Assembly: GCA_017516925.1 (NCBI GenBank)
Contig: JAFXAQ010000043.1
Span: 242-64,241 of the forward strand
Direction of reading: 5' to 3'
Source: Oscillospiraceae bacterium
GTDB lineage: Bacteria > Bacillota > Clostridia > Oscillospirales > Oscillospiraceae
DNA: 64,000 nucleotides
Shown: one piece after another, positions 28,082-35,675 of the stretch
How positions within the stretch are numbered: position 1 is the stretch's first letter
Layout: each line of letters begins with the position of its first letter
Made by a program: the position numbers and the translations under genes
The notes under the pieces: model-generated
What the model saw: the letters and a program-made list of their open reading frames with translations, nothing else
Database searches by the model: none
Told to the model about the DNA's origin: nothing

Positions 28082-28966
28082 ATGTTGGATTTAATTCGGG
28101 CCTACGAAAATTATCTTTCGAAGGTAAAACAGGCATCATCCAACACAATCATCTCGTACATACGCGATATTCGTCAGTTTTCGCAGTGGCTGTATCGAAC
28201 CGAGGGGTTGGACGTGATTGATGCGCAACAACTGAATATTTCCAATTTCCTCGGCTATCTGGAGGAGCAGGGACGGACAGGTGCGACAATTTCCAGAACC
28301 CTTGCCAGTCTTAAGAATTTTTATGCTTATGTAGTTTCGTCCGGCTTTCTGGAGAAAACACCTGTAACGGATATCCATATTGACAGGGGAGAGAAGAAGC
28401 TTCCGCAGGTGCTTACCGGACGCGAGATTGAGCTGCTTCTTGCGCAGCCTGTTTGTGTTGATGCAAAGGGATATCGAGACAAGGCAATGCTGGAGCTTAT
28501 GTATGCTACAGGTATTCGTGTCAGCGAACTAATTGAGCTGGACATCGGCGATGTTAATCTGGAGCAGGGTATTATTAAGTGCAACAGTGACAAGAAGACG
28601 AGAATCATACCGCTTTATCCGGCAGCGCTTAAGGCGTTAAGCGCATATATAAAGGATGTTCGACGCGGGATGCTTGCTACAGCAGATGAGCAGGCCTTGT
28701 TTGTGAATATTAATGGTGTGCGAATGAGCCGTCAGGGCTTCTGGAAAATCCTGAAATATTACCAGCAGTCTGCGCACATTGATAAGGAAATCACGCCGCA
28801 CACGCTGCGACACAGCTTTGCTGTACACCTCCTGGAAAATGGTGCCGACTTAGGCTCTCTGCAGGAATTGATGGGGCACAGAGATATTTCTTCCACGCAA
28901 ATGTACACCCATCTTATAAATCAAAAAATTAAATCTGTATATGAAAAATGCCACCCTAAGGCATAA
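28082..28966 (+). CDS. xerD: tyrosine recombinase XerD/RipX-like
   Basis: RDKAMLELMYATGIRVSEL, SRQGFWK, HTLRHSFAVH, MGH, TQMY. Confidence 0.88.
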   Translation: MLDLIRAYENYLSKVKQASSNTIISYIRDIRQFSQWLYRTEGLDVIDAQQLNISNFLGYLEEQGRTGATISRTLASLKNFYAYVVSSGFLEKTPVTDIHIDRGEKKLPQVLTGREIELLLAQPVCVDAKGYRDKAMLELMYATGIRVSELIELDIGDVNLEQGIIKCNSDKKTRIIPLYPAALKALSAYIKDVRRGMLATADEQALFVNINGVRMSRQGFWKILKYYQQSAHIDKEITPHTLRHSFAVHLLENGADLGSLQELMGHRDISSTQMYTHLINQKIKSVYEKCHPKA

Positions 28967-30096: not shown

Positions 30097-30126
30097 AACG
30101 TAGCAAAACCATTATTTTGTTGCCGA
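30097..30126. other. dif-like site a / left attachment junction
   Basis: AACGTAGCAAAA-CCATTA-TTTTGTTGCCGA; contains the 17-bp direct repeat CAAAACCATTATTTTGT also at 33708-33724. Confidence 0.7.
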
Positions 30127-30200
30127 GCCAATCTGCCGAGGGGTAGAAGGCTTGGAAAGTTCACTCGGCAAACCTGCCGATTTTTTCTTTGAACAAAACG

Positions 30201-30233
30201 AACGCAACAAAATGACAGAGGTTTTGTTGCGTT
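30201..30233. repeat. dif-like palindrome b
   Basis: AACGCAACAAAA-TGACAGAGG-TTTTGTTGCGTT, perfect 12-bp arms, 9-nt spacer. Confidence 0.8.
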
Positions 30234-30291
30234 AGTGGGTGTTCACAATAAAGCGGGACGGATATGACGAATATCAACCGTCCCGAGGCAT

Positions 30292-30385
30292 AAAAAAACC
30301 CTCGGGATTTCTCCCGAGGGTTTCTAGCTGGCCTTTGGACACCCGCCAGGGTGGAGCGCTTGCGCGCCCAGGCAAACAGCCCCGC
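30292..30385 (-). ncRNA. candidate ~95-nt structured small RNA
   Basis: TTGACA-17-TAGAAT promoter at 30420-30392 (minus strand) and terminator AAACCCTCGGGA-GAAA-TCCCGAGGGTTTTTTT; no RBS-led ORF between them. Confidence 0.55.
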
Positions 30386-30416
30386 ACAACTATTCTAGCG
30401 CAAATGTTCGGAAATG

Positions 30417-30716
30417 TCAAGCGGGATTATCCCGCTTGCTTTCCACGCGCTGCAGCTCGTCAATGAGGGCATCCGGTACTTCAAAAATGAAATCCTCCGG
30501 CTTTTTCCGGACATTCGGAAAACCGCCGGGCGTGCCTTCAAATTCGGCAAATACCTCACGGGTGACCAAATCAACGATTACGCAGGCTTTTGTTTTCGTG
30601 GTGCTTTGCAAAGCCCACAGCTGAAGCAGGGCGCATCCTAATGCGGTCATTGATGTGTCGATTTTTCCGGTTTTCTTACTAAAGCGGACAAGTCCAAATC
30701 TGTGCATGTCGTTCAT
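30417..30716 (-). CDS. hypothetical 99-aa protein of the element
   Basis: GAAAGGAG RBS 10 nt before ATG; globular composition; no recognised family. Confidence 0.7.
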   Translation of the reverse strand: MNDMHRFGLVRFSKKTGKIDTSMTALGCALLQLWALQSTTKTKACVIVDLVTREVFAEFEGTPGGFPNVRKKPEDFIFEVPDALIDELQRVESKRDNPA

Positions 30717-30759
30717 ATTTTGCACGCTCCTTTCTGCCTTGCGGCGTTGACCAATGAGC

Positions 30760-31950
30760 CGGGGAAGTCAAGGCCGCACCATCTTGCCCTTGCTTTATGC
30801 CAGGGCAAGACGGTGCGCCGTCAGGCTTGGCCTTGACCCCCGGATACAATGGGAAGACGCAGGCAGAACACAGACGGCACCAAACTCCGGGGGGGCCGCC
30901 CGCGCAGCGGGTGGGGGCCGCAGCCCCTGTGAAACAGCCCCGCGCTTCCACGGAGCCCCCAGCGGGGGCGGCGGGGACGGGAGGGGCGCAGGGGAGAACG
31001 CCGCCCAGACGGCCGCAGCAGCGCCCACAGAAGCGCTGCGAGCGTGCACGCAGCGCAACAAGAGCTCGGGGGCGGGCGAAAAAAAGCGGGGCTTGCCCCG
31101 CTACGCCCCCGAGCAAGGAGCAGGACACCCCCGAAGCCCACAGGGGCTGGGCAGGGGGGACCCGCCGACAGACGGACTGACCACAGGCGAGCCCGCACGC
31201 AGCAAGGGCAACCGAATAGGGAGCCCGCAGCGCAGAAAGGGCAAGCCAAGGTCACCGGCTGGAGCGAGAGGGGTTCGAGGGCGACGCAGGAGCCCGCAGA
31301 AAATCCCCCGAGCTCTCAAGGCGGGGGGCTGCCCAGAGGGGTGTCGAGGGCTGAAAGCCCGAGCGCAAAGCGCCTGCGGGGCGCTGGGGCTTTTGCGGAC
31401 GCATTCTGCGAGGCAATGCCGAAGCAGAATAAGTGCGGACGCAAAATGCCCCATAAAGGCAGCGAAGCTGCCAAGCGCCAAATACATTCGGGGTTTGGGC
31501 GGTCGCCCAACCAAAGCAAGGCTTGTGGGTGCTGCTTGCGGGCGAAGCTACCGCATTCGCCCGCAAGCAGAGTAAGCCCACGGCTGCCTTGCTTTGGTGC
31601 TATGCACTCTCGATAGCCCACCATAGCTTGGCTGCGGAGTATCTGCAGCCAAGCTATGGTGGTGCGGGCTGACGCACTTGGAAACTGCAACAGGCTACCG
31701 ACTACTGCTTGAGGTATCTACGCGGTATCACTATTTAGCGTCTGCGTTTTTGGTGCGTAGCACCAAAAACACTGACGCCCGATACGCAGAGCATTTGCCC
31801 GCGGAGAATGTGCGGGCAAATGCGACCGCATTTGCGCTGCCGCTGCTGCGAAGGCGGCGTAGCTGCCGCCGCGCAGCGGCAGCGTAGCGAGCTTGCGAGC
31901 GCCCGCTTAAGCGGGCTGCGAAGCAGCGAGCGTAGCGAAGCGAAGCGTTT
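30760..31950. other. GC-rich multi-hairpin non-coding region (candidate single-strand origin / packaging region)
   Basis: many inverted repeats, e.g. 18-bp perfect arms at 31618-31662, also 31790-31823, 31834-31883, 31900-31916; TAGCGA motifs near 31885 and 31933. Confidence 0.55.
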
Positions 31951-31951
31951 T

Positions 31952-31976
31952 GGGGTGCACCCCTATACTTGATATT
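31952..31976 (+). other. candidate double-strand origin (rolling-circle nick site)
   Basis: GGGGTGCACCCC palindrome followed by ACTTGATATT, matching the phiX174/pC194-type CTTG^ATA nick motif, 35 nt before rep. Confidence 0.65.
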
Positions 31977-32010
31977 CGGACATTATTCCTTCACAGCGGG
32001 AATGTGAATA

Positions 32011-32775
32011 ATGGCAAAATCCAAAAATGAGTTGTTCCACAACTCGAAAATTTACGTATACCCCAATGGCTTACAAGATATCGTTGTCAGCACGTCTGCA
32101 GATTTCCACCCGCCAGGGTGGGAGGTTGCTGACGATTGGGGGCAACGCAAAATGCCCCTTGAAAAGGGGGTTCGCAAGGTTGCAGACCCCGCTTTTGAGG
32201 ATATGCAACGCTCAATGCGTCGAGCTCGGGGTAAACTGCGTCGGCTTGCTTTAGCAAACGACTTTCGTTGGTTTGTGACTTTAACGCTTGACCCTCAGAA
32301 GGTTGACAGTCACGACGGCAAAGCCGTTGTGCAAAAGCTGAATAGCTGGTGCTCTAATATGGTCCAAAGAAACGGACTGAAATATATTCTTGTTCCGGAA
32401 CGGCACAAGAAAGGTGGTATCCATTTCCACGGCTTTTTCAACGATGTTGTGGAGTTTTCCGACAGCGGACATACCGACAGCCAAGGTCATAAAATTTTCA
32501 ATCTTCCTCAGTGGACACTGGGTTTCACTACGGCTATCGAATTATACGACGATTATCATAAGGCTGTCGGGTATGTCTGCAAGTATGTCGGAAAACAAGG
32601 GGAAAAACCTGCGGGCAGATGGTATTATTCAGGCGGTGGTTTGAATGAACCAAAGGTCATTTATGCTGACTTGGATTTTCAAGACTTTGTCGCAGAAAAT
32701 CAGGGGAAATGCTTTGAATTCGAGGTACCCGGCAAACGGCTTGCCGTTATAAATGGATACACAGAAAGTACTTGA
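32011..32775 (+). CDS. HUH rolling-circle replication initiator (inovirus/plasmid-like Rep)
   Basis: motif I FVTLT, motif II IHFHG, motif III YVCKY; SMRRAR upstream helix. Confidence 0.88.
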   Translation: MAKSKNELFHNSKIYVYPNGLQDIVVSTSADFHPPGWEVADDWGQRKMPLEKGVRKVADPAFEDMQRSMRRARGKLRRLALANDFRWFVTLTLDPQKVDSHDGKAVVQKLNSWCSNMVQRNGLKYILVPERHKKGGIHFHGFFNDVVEFSDSGHTDSQGHKIFNLPQWTLGFTTAIELYDDYHKAVGYVCKYVGKQGEKPAGRWYYSGGGLNEPKVIYADLDFQDFVAENQGKCFEFEVPGKRLAVINGYTEST

Positions 32776-32803
32776 GCAAGTACAAATGAAAGGGGGTGTT
32801 GCT

Positions 32804-32953
32804 ATGCTTTATGGTCGTTTTGTGGTCCTGATTGATTTGTGTATTAAACTGCTGAATATGGTCAAAAGGGAAGTTATGAAGGAGCAAGCTGAATTGCTTG
32901 CGGTGTTCGCTGAAAATAACGACGCGGGGGAAGATGTCGAAGATGTGGATTGA
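32804..32953 (+). CDS. small hypothetical protein (49 aa, acidic tail)
   Basis: AAAGGGGGTG RBS before ATG at 32804, directly after rep. Confidence 0.5.
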   Translation: MLYGRFVVLIDLCIKLLNMVKREVMKEQAELLAVFAENNDAGEDVEDVD

Positions 32954-32968
32954 CATTTTTCGGAAAGT

Positions 32969-33015
32969 AAAATCCCGGAAAATCCCCGCGTAAGCGGTGG
33001 GTTTTCCGGGATTTT
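32969..33015 (+). terminator. strong hairpin between rep operon and recombinase
   Basis: AAAATCCCGGAAAATCCC...GGGTTTTCCGGGATTTT. Confidence 0.55.
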
Positions 33016-33051
33016 CGGGAAAAACGTTCTTACAGAAAAGAGGGGGAACAA

Positions 33052-33588
33052 GTGAAAACGGAATATCTTATGGATAGGGAAATGGAGTTGGTGCTTTCCG
33101 CACTTATGCCTGAAAATCGCCTGATTATGCGCCTTTGCATGCATACAGGGCTTCGGGTGGGTGACGCGCTGTGCATTACCACTCAGCAACTGGAACATAG
33201 GCGGTTTTCGGTGTTGGAGCATAAGACAGGGAAACGTAAAACCATAACACTACCAGATACCCTGCTTAGCGATTTACGCGAACAGGGTAGGGGAAGTGTG
33301 TTCGTTTTCCCGCATAGGTCAAAGCCTGACCAGCATAGAACGCGTCAGGCTGTCTGGGCTGATGTGAAGAGGGCAGTTAAGGCGTTCCGCCTTAACGTGA
33401 ACGCTGGAACACATTCAGCCCGTAAGGCTTTCGCGGTTGACCTTATGCGGAAATATGGTGACATTGAACGCGTAAAAAATGCCCTCAACCATTCTAGCGT
33501 TGAGGTCACGTTGCTTTATGCTATGGCTGACGCGCTCCGGAATGAACGGCACAAAGTGCCGAGAAAAAGACGGAGCAAGTCAGGCTAA
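33052..33588 (+). CDS. small tyrosine recombinase (catalytic domain only)
   Basis: TGLRVGD, KTGK, HSARK, LNH, terminal Y: full R-K-H-R-H-Y set in 178 aa; GAGGGGG RBS, GTG start. Confidence 0.88.
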   Translation: MKTEYLMDREMELVLSALMPENRLIMRLCMHTGLRVGDALCITTQQLEHRRFSVLEHKTGKRKTITLPDTLLSDLREQGRGSVFVFPHRSKPDQHRTRQAVWADVKRAVKAFRLNVNAGTHSARKAFAVDLMRKYGDIERVKNALNHSSVEVTLLYAMADALRNERHKVPRKRRSKSG

Positions 33589-33613
33589 GCCGGGGCTGAA
33601 AATCAACTCGGAA

Positions 33614-33642
33614 TTGACAAAGCGTTCGGGCGGGTGTATACT
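33614..33642 (+). promoter_or_regulatory. sigma-A consensus promoter at right end of the element
   Basis: TTGACA-17 nt-TATACT. Confidence 0.7.
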
Positions 33643-33699
33643 GACAGTGACACTTACGAAAGGAGCACCGCAGAAGTCCCGCCAAACCTTACGACCACA

Positions 33700-33729
33700 A
33701 ACGCCAACAAAACCATTATTTTGTGGGTC
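33700..33729. other. dif-like site c / right attachment junction
   Basis: AACGCCAACAAAA-CCATTA-TTTTGTGGGTC, same 6-nt spacer as site a. Confidence 0.7.
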
Positions 33730-33788
33730 GGGAAGACCCGTATGCGTTCATTGGCTGAACTCAGCCAATGATTTATTTTGAAGACAAT

Positions 33789-33820
33789 GAACGCAACAAA
33801 ATAAAAATTTTGTTGCGTTC
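33789..33820. repeat. dif-like palindrome d
   Basis: GAACGCAACAAAA-TAAAAA-TTTTGTTGCGTTC, perfect 13-bp arms, 6-nt spacer. Confidence 0.8.
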
Positions 33821-33858: not shown

Positions 33859-34644
33859 TTAGAACAATTCGTCTAATAAAATATAATAATGTATTAGTTC
33901 CCAGTCCGGTTTTATGCCCAGAGCATCAAAAAGCATCTCGTCCTTAAATCCGGGATATTTCTTTCCATCATATACGCCATTATAATTATTAGACAAGCTT
34001 CTGTATACCAGTGCAATATCTTGCCACCGATCCGCTGTACCGGACCGGCCAAGGTCAATTAAACCTGTAAGTCCTTTGTTATTTAGAAATATATTTGGAA
34101 GGCAAAAATCTCCGTGTGAGATGACTGCTGTTTCTTCCGGCTTGTTAACAATTAGCCAATTAAGTAATTCTTCGGGATTTTTAAAGCCGTTTTGACCGAA
34201 TGTATCCGGTTGTGCATCCTCAATGCTGACATTACCTGAAATTACATTATCTTCAGCGTGGCGCAGTCGTTTATCCAACGACCAGCTGCATGGACAATCC
34301 TCCGTTGGAATGCTCCACAATTTATGTAACGACTCAGCAAGTAATTCTACCTGTTTTACCGGATTAGACATATATTTTTGATCGCAGCTCATAATGCCTT
34401 CGCATTTTGTCATTAGAATATATGAACACTCGTTTTCGATAGTATGTTCGATTATGTTCGGCACTGGGATTTTGCCTTTTAACCATTGCAGCATCTGAAT
34501 TTCGTTGTCTGCTTCAATGGAAACTGGCTGAATCTTCAGAACCACACTATCGAACAAATATACTCCTGCGTCAGATTTTCCAATTCTATCCGTTTGGAAG
34601 TCATTTTGTTTTATAAATTGTTCAAATATCTTAGGAAAATACAT
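33859..34644 (-). CDS. aminoglycoside phosphotransferase, APH(3') family
   Basis: IGKS..VY, HGDFCLPN, IDLGRSG.ADRWQDIAL, YYILLDELF C-terminus; AT-rich. Confidence 0.88.
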   Translation of the reverse strand: MYFPKIFEQFIKQNDFQTDRIGKSDAGVYLFDSVVLKIQPVSIEADNEIQMLQWLKGKIPVPNIIEHTIENECSYILMTKCEGIMSCDQKYMSNPVKQVELLAESLHKLWSIPTEDCPCSWSLDKRLRHAEDNVISGNVSIEDAQPDTFGQNGFKNPEELLNWLIVNKPEETAVISHGDFCLPNIFLNNKGLTGLIDLGRSGTADRWQDIALVYRSLSNNYNGVYDGKKYPGFKDEMLFDALGIKPDWELIHYYILLDELF

Positions 34645-34673
34645 TGTAAATCACCATTTTGGAGGTATTTTTT

Positions 34674-35675
34674 ATGCAAAAATATTCAGATTGTCCTATG
34701 GTTTTGCGTGATTTTTTGGTCTACCATGAAACAATTAAGGGTCAATCACCGCAAACCATACATGAGTATTATTTAGATTTGAGGATGTTTTTTCGTTTTA
34801 TAAAGCTTATGCAGAATGATATGCCAATTCAAACAAAATTAGAGGACATTCCCATAAAGGACGTTGATATTGCGTTCGTTAAAGGCATCACAACATCGGA
34901 TATATTTGATTTTTTATTATATCTTGCAAATGACAGAGTTGTTGATGCAGATAAACCATATGCGGAAAAGGGTGTCTCCCCTACTACCCGCGCTCGAAAA
35001 CTTTCAGCGCTAAAATCCTTTTATAAATACTTAACTGTTCGAACCAAGCAGCTGGAAGAAAACCCGGTTGCAGACTTGGAGTATCCAAAATTAAGAAAAA
35101 GCTTGCCCAAATATCTGACATTGGAACAATCTTCCAAATTATTACAAGCTGTTTCTGGTCAAAATCAGGCGCGGGACTATGCAATTTTGATGCTTTTTCT
35201 CAATTGTGGGATTCGCAGAAGCGAATTGGTTGGTTTGAATATGACCGATGTGTATGAGGATAGAATTCGTGTTGTCGGTAAGGGCAATAAAGAACGTATT
35301 GTTTACTTTGGCGCCTCTTGCAGAAAAGCCATTGACGCATATTTAGCAGAACGAAACAAGCTGGTCCTGACAGACAATCGTGCATTGTTTGGTTCACGGA
35401 ACGGTAATAGGATCAGTGTTGATGCTGTTCACGCATTGGTGAAAAAAGCATTTTTGAAGGCGGGCTTGGACGCAACGCAATTTTCTGCGCATAAACTGCG
35501 CCATACGGCAGCAACTATGATGCTATCAGGCGGTGTGGATGTAAAAACCGTACAGGAAGTTCTTGGTCACGAGAACTTAAATACTACACAGATTTATACC
35601 CATATCGAAAACACTGAGCTTAAAATCGCAGCTGAAGCCAATCCCCTATCTAAGCTGGATTTTTCTGAGGAATAA
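34674..35675 (+). CDS. tyrosine recombinase XerC/XerS-like
   Basis: RARKLSALKSFYKYL, RDYAIL..CGIRRSEL, GKGNKER, HKLRHTAAT, LGH, TQIYTH; GGAGG RBS. Confidence 0.9.
   Translation: MQKYSDCPMVLRDFLVYHETIKGQSPQTIHEYYLDLRMFFRFIKLMQNDMPIQTKLEDIPIKDVDIAFVKGITTSDIFDFLLYLANDRVVDADKPYAEKGVSPTTRARKLSALKSFYKYLTVRTKQLEENPVADLEYPKLRKSLPKYLTLEQSSKLLQAVSGQNQARDYAILMLFLNCGIRRSELVGLNMTDVYEDRIRVVGKGNKERIVYFGASCRKAIDAYLAERNKLVLTDNRALFGSRNGNRISVDAVHALVKKAFLKAGLDATQFSAHKLRHTAATMMLSGGVDVKTVQEVLGHENLNTTQIYTHIENTELKIAAEANPLSKLDFSEE

Follow-up and report, generated by a model that had tools for sequence, protein, structure and literature searches.

A capsid-less Rep and small-recombinase element at a likely dif site of an Oscillospiraceae bacterium, probably integrating as a folded single strand

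The 64,000-nucleotide window analyzed here (positions 242 to 64,241 of contig JAFXAQ010000043.1, assembly GCA_017516925.1, Oscillospiraceae bacterium) contains a 3589-bp element that encodes a rolling-circle replication protein (Rep) and a small tyrosine recombinase and that carries no capsid genes. The element lies at a 30-bp palindrome, site D, which is likely the dif site of the host, and we consider it probable that it enters this site as a folded single strand through the host Xer recombinase, in the manner of CTXphi. The analysis supports the original prediction for this DNA, that of a rolling-circle element without capsid genes that exploits a non-canonical dif in a gut spore-former, and does so more strongly than the earlier reader could show. 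The source assembly spans 1.65 Mb and is 83.6% complete; the host Xer-like protein is ~80% identical to proteins of records labelled Faecousia, and sporulation genes lie near the locus. The sites and host genes that bear on integration are these:

28082 to 28966, plus strand: host XerD-like recombinase, outside the element (TIGR02225, 323.7 bits, cut-off 329.6)
30097 to 30200, plus strand: A1, a copy of site A, plus loop; likely an older scar, outside the present element and the source of a 17-bp repeat
30201 to 30233, plus strand: attL, in which the left arm of the host meets the centre (9 bp, 30213-30221) and right arm of the long-centre site D*; the same junction occurs in 35 integrated loci
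33701 to 33752, plus strand: site A (A2), the other half of the folded attP, as suggested by covariation with the D* centre, by the fold and by loop homology to L137, L136 and L130; its centre is 6 bp long (33713-33718), and an extruded hairpin (33725-33739) interrupts its right arm
33725 to 33789, plus strand: attP loop between A and D, containing a terminator-like hairpin at 33748-33771
33790 to 33819, no strand: site D, a dif-like palindrome of 12-bp arms and a 6-bp centre, regenerated as attR, its left arm derived from the element
34659 to 35675, plus strand: host recombinase of 338 aa, Xer-like and outside the element, encoded in 30/30 near-complete relatives

For comparison, 110 genome matches were reduced to 78 loci and 259 metagenome matches to 80. 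Both rep and the recombinase gene are present in 149 loci, the window included, and the 115 that were parsed comprise a free form with A, loop and D* (48 loci), loci with both integration junctions (35) and loci with the right junction only (32). Where both junctions are present, the left one joins the host left arm to the D* centre and the right one consists of A, the loop and an intact D. From this structure the crossover is placed at the left border of the centre, in the window at 30212/30213 and 33801/33802, which gives a unit of 3589 bp. The original prediction had instead taken an exact 17-bp direct repeat as the ends of a 3604-bp unit and as its attachment core or dif. The repeat does lie at 30104-30120 and 33708-33724, and with one mismatch allowed it has no further occurrence in the assembly (chance expectation ~0.001 for 6 kb and 0.09 for 64 kb), but the copy on the right forms the core of site A, and the dif-like site, which does exist, is a separate palindrome 66 bp to the right of that copy. 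At the corresponding locus of relatives that lack the element, the palindrome is conserved, mostly without any copy of the 17-mer.

The left copy of the repeat has another history. It is absent from 29 of 32 integrated loci and present only in the window, L051 and L061. Of the two loops in the window, the one 3' of the right copy is 84-90% like those of free circles (L137, L136 and L130), whereas the one 3' of the left copy is 73% like that of element L135 and unlike the right-hand loop. In L039, L042 and L049 an A site and its loop stand before D with no element present, and in five of six scars the junction lies within ~40 nt of A and the arms are of the A type. The left copy is likely the scar of an earlier, different family member, and the present element would have entered the D that this member regenerated; the 17-bp repeat would then arise because the present copy landed beside the older scar. 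A related observation is that 1.6-6 kb of variable DNA separates pfkA from the dif-like site in L031, L033, L040, L047, L048, L056, L100 and L156; such DNA, some of it with degenerate site copies, likely represents relics of other insertions.

The free-form loci share one order, namely the recombinase gene, site A (centre of 6 bp), a 28-168-nt loop and site D* with dif arms and an 8-11-bp centre, and 22 of the 48 are contigs with terminal redundancy, 2.8-3.85 kb long (20 distinct, which could also be collapsed tandem arrays). Over the parsed loci the centre is 6 bp long in 106/115 A sites and 8-11 bp in 83/83 D* sites. A forked hairpin, in which A pairs with D*, is the minimum-energy fold in 71 of the 83 A-loop-D* sites, and in the natural circle L137 this fold has a z-score of -6.2. 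Among 40 distinct centre pairs the outer bases of the two centres covary, with a paired run of 2.08 compared with 1.13 after permutation (0/10,000), in a test that ignores kinship and is inflated by it; the covarying pairs are of the types C:G, G:C, A:T and T:A and are scattered over a weakly supported recombinase tree. Homology to the host is one-sided, in that the left border pairs with host dif in 83/83 sites for the D* strand and 82/83 for the A strand, and the right border in 4/83. Both strands of the host centre start with T, so insertion is expected in either orientation, as is seen (L058, L099). The attP of CTXphi comprises two dif-like sites in inverted orientation, separated by 90 bp and with centres of 12 bp and 5-7 bp, on a plus strand that folds; XerC swaps one strand pair at the homologous centres and replication finishes the reaction, with an irreversible outcome (PMC4246890; articles are cited from excerpts throughout). 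The attP of the present element appears to follow this attP(+) design point by point.

Site D is likely the host dif, a function suggested by position, conservation and geometry, as for the dif site of Legionella (PMC9765430). Of 29 genus loci retrieved with the xer orthologue as anchor, 25 carry the perfect palindrome unchanged, two carry it with 1-2 mismatches and two lack it (one of these at a contig end); the DNA on either side is unrelated from one species to another. Thirteen of 20 genomes from the order's other families have a related palindrome, altered in its outer arms, next to the xer orthologue. G045, a complete genome, has one at 1,145,997 of 2,229,578, 51% of the way round from dnaA (at ~1 kb). 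Cumulative GC skew in the window has its maximum at 35566, with a plateau at ~28-36 kb, which places the element locus in the terminus region. The site D sequence is single-copy in the assembly, which encodes an FtsK-family protein and in which a canonical Firmicutes dif core was looked for and not found. Its conservation, xer adjacency and terminus position, together with the absent canonical core and the FtsK-family gene, are the grounds on which we take D for the dif, and a non-coding dyad of ~30 bp near the terminus and beside a xer gene is what single-recombinase-type dif sites look like. The adjacent 338-aa protein is likely the enzyme that acts on D; it scores below the XerC and XerS cut-offs (NCBIfam PRK05084, XerS, 159 vs 267 bits), and its orthologue stands alongside 55/61 chromosomal element loci. 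The XerD-like protein is a possible second partner. Across the order, palindromic dif-like sites occur beside a gene for a Xer-like protein of 330-350 aa, with outer arms that vary by lineage (window 33790-33819; L212-L231).

The arms of the element point to the host enzyme. Element-derived arms match host arms across genera (22.0 vs 19.4 of 24, 0/10,000 permutations, 14 arm sets, a test likewise inflated by kinship), and they track the distance of the host Xer over that of the element enzyme (Spearman 0.75 vs 0.49; partial 0.68 vs 0.30; 51 non-independent loci). Moreover, the 300 family genomes gave six strong Zot matches, five of which are neighbours of D and the xer gene; three recombinase sequences run by tblastn against these five D-site inoviruses turned up no integrase. 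Host Xer is therefore very likely exploitable without an enzyme of the element's own.

A pathway can be proposed on this basis. Rep would nick the origin and release the plus strand, as its family and a conserved motif suggest. The resulting circle would carry A, loop and D* in a row, as it does in relatives, and on the single strand A and D* are predicted to pair into a forked hairpin that presents two dif arms around a mismatched centre, a fold that the covariation supports. By analogy with CTXphi, host Xer would swap one strand pair at the left border, the sole side with homology, and replication would resolve the junction. The expected product, a long-centre hybrid on the left and an intact dif on the right, is the arrangement found in integrated loci, and because an intact dif is regenerated, further copies or inoviruses can stack there, as they do. 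Insertion would presumably be irreversible. Since single copies of the CTX type should be unable to excise, the mini-recombinase most likely releases or monomerises circles, although the grounds for this role are slight, and 9-mer counts in 51 elements found no conserved second recombination site for it. Spread between cells would most likely take place in the coats of inoviruses that use the same site, for which we put the chances at about even.

The main competing reading, improbable in our estimate, is that the mini-recombinase is instead the required integration catalyst, alone or partnering host Xer, on the same folded attP and target. Its catalytic residues R35, K58, H121, R124, H147 and Y156 are invariant in 44/44 sequences, its gene is present in 56/56 complete elements and always just upstream of site A, the arms keep the residual partial correlation of 0.30 with it, and the integron integrase is among its top fold matches. 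Integron integrases act on folded strands. Set against this, the protein lacks a core-binding domain, the arms follow host Xer more closely, and integrase-less inoviruses enter the same site, one of them with the same hairpin. A double-stranded 3604-bp circle that integrates and excises through the two 17-bp repeats and its own recombinase would explain the exact repeat with its equal 6-bp centres and the same layout in L051 and L061, and with the element-free A sites of L039, L042 and L049 it may be a secondary route where a scar exists. As the general route we give it very little credence; the left copy is absent from nearly all integrated loci, most empty loci lack an A site, the loop after the right copy and not the left matches free circles, and no 3604-bp joint is listed in four DNA sequencing runs. 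Nor do we give more than slight weight to D being an operator of the xer promoter, or some other recombination hot spot, rather than a chromosome dimer-resolution site. D does overlap the -35 position of a conserved promoter of the extended -10 type that is directed towards the xer gene, and a related palindrome was undetected in 7/20 of the ~3.7-kb stretches from other families; yet D has the terminus position, the dif-like geometry and the single copy of a dif, unrelated integrase-less elements use it, no canonical core was found, and a site beside the gene is the XerS/XerH pattern (PMC5357621).

Entry of the element as a folded strand at a dif, by way of host Xer, remains our preferred reading, and several observations weigh against it. 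Of the 149 loci 34 are unparsed, 12/83 sites lack the forked fold, and in the window that fold ties with local hairpins (-32.0 vs -32.1 kcal). Neglect of kinship in both permutation tests and the possible collapse of tandem arrays in the 20 contigs belong here as well. Neither a circle junction nor an empty site of the same species is listed in the four DNA runs (three possibly from the same source), which may be missing because contigs break at the shared palindrome, and read depth over the element equals that of its flanks. The intact recombinase in 56/56 elements, which CTXphi-class elements do not have, means that host Xer alone may not be the catalyst. Two further points concern the helper: no Zot gene or helper inovirus was found in the element's own genome, at 83.6% completeness, and a Rep of the element type occurs together with a dif inovirus in one genome only (G162).

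The inoviruses at D are integrase-less prophages of 5.6-7.1 kb, including one tandem pair, and are apparently undescribed Xer-exploiting inoviruses of Clostridia. Their loci are:

L298:7620-13278 (G076)
L263 (G340)
L262/L295 (G309)
L296 (G296)
L297 (G071)
L300 (G162)

L298 carries the same forked attP in reverse order, the ends of L296 and L300 are of a type with one divergent arm, and two same-site inoviruses carry the Rep family of the element. In the three inovirus records nearest to the Rep, Zot is present, no integrase is annotated, and a pattern search found no matching attP. The element itself has traits of an inovirus satellite, with its own replication, no morphogenesis genes and the insertion site of the candidate helpers. 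The same-site inoviruses are candidate helpers only, found in related genomes and not in that of the element, and satellite and integrative cryptic plasmid are about equally probable. Transmission as a cryptic plasmid, by mobilisation, transduction or uptake and with no helper coat, is a serious contender that falls just short of an even chance. It agrees with the lack of an IMG/VR relative, the identity of at most 41% to phage records, the occurrence of the Rep family on 1.4-kb staphylococcal plasmids and the lack of Zot in the own genome. It agrees less well with the want of a relaxase or any other conserved gene in 56 elements, with the Rep family and target shared with resident inoviruses, and with a patchy distribution and weak Xer-recombinase congruence (0.42), which imply horizontal spread.

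A wider scheme, which we hold to be unlikely as a whole, is that Oscillospirales have a dif/Xer system of their own with a guild of parasites, made up of integrase-less inoviruses and thousands of folded-strand 3-kb satellites, in which the recombinase without core-binding domain would join the host Xer complex and make CTX-type integration reversible, and in which a conserved promoter across attP would help to expose the folding strand.

The genes and non-coding parts of the element are as follows:

30234 to 31959, plus strand: hairpin-rich, mostly non-coding region, ~1.7 kb of structured DNA between the repeat copies
30292 to 30420, minus strand: possible short RNA, with a promoter-like site at 30420-30392 and a stem with T-run near 30292-30321, common to 2-4 of 55 elements
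30417 to 30716, minus strand: variable cargo open reading frame (ORF), 99 aa, with homologues in L130 and L142
31960 to 31992, plus strand: probable double-strand origin with a nick-like motif at 31968-31974 (121/130 loci; consensus from 55 elements)
32011 to 32775, plus strand: HUH rolling-circle Rep of the ORF2/G2P family, 254 aa (PF23343, E 1.5e-15)
32804 to 32953, plus strand: 49-aa ORF located in the variable slot that separates rep from the recombinase gene
33052 to 33588, plus strand: mini tyrosine recombinase, catalytic domain only, 178 aa (PF00589 only)
33614 to 33642, plus strand: sigma-70-type promoter aimed across site A (11/12 consensus; in 110/115 elements vs 3.3% background)

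Most of the gene content named in the original prediction was confirmed, including the HUH Rep, the mini-recombinase, the nick-like motif, which lies upstream of rep, the two orphan ORFs (neither has a Pfam family, and Atlas matches of the 99-aa ORF are all <0.8) and the absence of Zot, coat and relaxase from the unit. The nick-like motif may resemble the nick sites of phiX174 and pC194, and an inverted copy lies 50-210 nt inside the left end in 19/56 elements, in the window near 30265-30280. The hairpin-rich DNA also held up, with z-scores of -2.8 to -6.7 in six of nine 200-nt windows and of +0.6 to -3.0 in six coding controls. A G-rich block near 30935-31000, conserved in 23-25 of 55 elements, may serve as a single-strand origin or as a packaging signal; the long GC-rich ORFs that cover 30754-31690 are unconserved and were for that reason not accepted as genes. 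The proposed small RNA keeps only its promoter and terminator patterns, since Rfam gave nothing above threshold on the element, just chance sub-threshold microRNA hairpin matches. The model of the recombinase, with a pLDDT (predicted local distance difference test) of 88, matches integrase catalytic domains. The sigma-70-type promoter, once the element is integrated, points to the host xer gene; a Shine-Dalgarno-like stretch follows it (33614-33700), usually without an ORF, as in the window.

The slot between rep and recombinase holds other small genes elsewhere. In 14/56 elements it carries a stand-alone Spo0A C-terminal DNA-binding gene (PF08769, E 1.8e-19; L061:7755-8114), which may tie the element to sporulation control, and in three (L054:7967-8308, L052, L130) a gene with a weak, sub-cut-off match to a terminase small subunit (PF03592, E 1.7e-4). 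Outside the element, an APH(3') aminoglycoside phosphotransferase gene (33859-34644, NF033068 above cut-off) lies between D and xer; at this locus it is present in two relatives and fragmented in one (L002, L032, L063), and most others lack it. The own genome also contains, at four dispersed positions (G000:C29:25461, C40:29213, C51:35049, C10:27192), a further palindrome whose centre is 6 bp long and whose arms differ; it may be a repeat element or an operator.

Rep and the recombinase are the only products that all 56 complete elements (2.5-3.9 kb) have in common. No pI/Zot ATPase, coat, relaxase or further ORF is conserved among them, and a search for small membrane coat proteins gave three hydrophobic ORFs among those kept by the filter, none common between elements. 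Thus, where the original prediction asked whether relatives of the Rep carry pI and coat genes, distant inovirus relatives do have Zot, but 56/56 complete elements are without pI or coat. The Rep family comprises at least 1706 clusters and the recombinase family at least 3840, mostly on 1-4-kb contigs. A Rep match occurs in 22/300 family genomes, some of them inovirus Reps, and the recombinase family in only two other genomes, of the same order, in a 399-genome sample of the class (two unscored). IMG/VR scans with the Rep and a Rep alignment found no relative, and PLSDB and phage records held only distant Reps (28-36% and 26-41%, respectively, the latter being the identity to gut inovirus Reps) and generic integrases near 30%. 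Tandem copies of the element occur in L122/L271. Element contigs with Oscillospiraceae-type arms are also found in genomes labelled Akkermansia, Paludibacteraceae and Hallerella (L053, L055, L065, L086-L088, L112), likely through mis-binning.

If this account is true, folded single-strand integration as in CTXphi extends from Proteobacteria to Gram-positive gut bacteria and to a near-perfect palindromic dif, and a candidate chromosome dimer-resolution site is named for Oscillospirales. It would also account for a very large family of 3-kb gut metagenome circles that the virus and plasmid collections searched have missed, pose the question why an element capable of using host Xer retains a catalytic-domain-only recombinase, and suggest a neutral integration locus for poorly tractable commensals. 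The literature searched, which lay outside subscription journals and whose virome and inovirus supplements may hold such sequences unremarked, gave no description of the element family, of integrative mobile elements that exploit Xer (IMEXs) in Clostridia or of this dif type, which is apparently undescribed. A dif survey (PMC3025954) has 19 Clostridia rows in its supplement 2, none from Oscillospirales and all with canonical sites; an excerpted gut inovirus study (PMC10061712) reports flanking direct repeats with no mention of Xer in the excerpt, and another study removed satellite-like elements without structural genes (PMC10159846). Excerpts of PMC5357621, PMC8136486, PMC6813254, PMC1914069, PMC11281440 and 10.1101/2025.08.03.668216 were among those compared.

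Among known systems, XerS/difSL and XerH/difH resemble the host side in having an atypical near-palindromic terminus site beside a long Xer gene, and XerL/dif with LME-1 in having perfect dyad arms and a site found through a mobile element (PMC9765430). Site D differs from all three in its arms and in a host protein that falls under the XerS cut-off, and may differ from single-enzyme Xer systems, given the XerD-like gene 4.8 kb away; the excerpts on LME-1 describe no folded attP, unlike that of the present element. The gut inoviruses of Clostridia (Enterocloster inoviruses, bajarodino and Dulem viruses) have a related ORF2/G2P Rep (26-41%), and those of Oscillospiraceae share the insertion site, but the element is half their size and lacks pI/Zot, coat and pIII in 56 complete copies. 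TLCphi is likewise a small capsid-less dif replicon that encodes a Xer-related factor (XafT, cited in PMC9765430), yet TLC has a single, double-stranded attP and integrates reversibly (PMC4246890), whereas the element has a bipartite attP and its accessory protein is a tyrosine recombinase. The closest likeness is to CTXphi and RS1, with which it shares a bipartite folding attP, one-sided homology, a regenerated dif, tandem arrays and a rolling-circle Rep (PMC4246890). It differs from them in its Gram-positive host, an unrelated dif with perfect 12-bp arms, a PF23343 Rep, a catalytic-domain recombinase of its own and the lack of morphogenesis genes, with a helper that is only a candidate. Because it keeps that recombinase, we file it as a variant and not a plain member of the CTX class of IMEXs, an assignment for which comparison of sequences gives strong support and in which the element would depart from the class in host phylum, dif type and the possession of its own recombinase.

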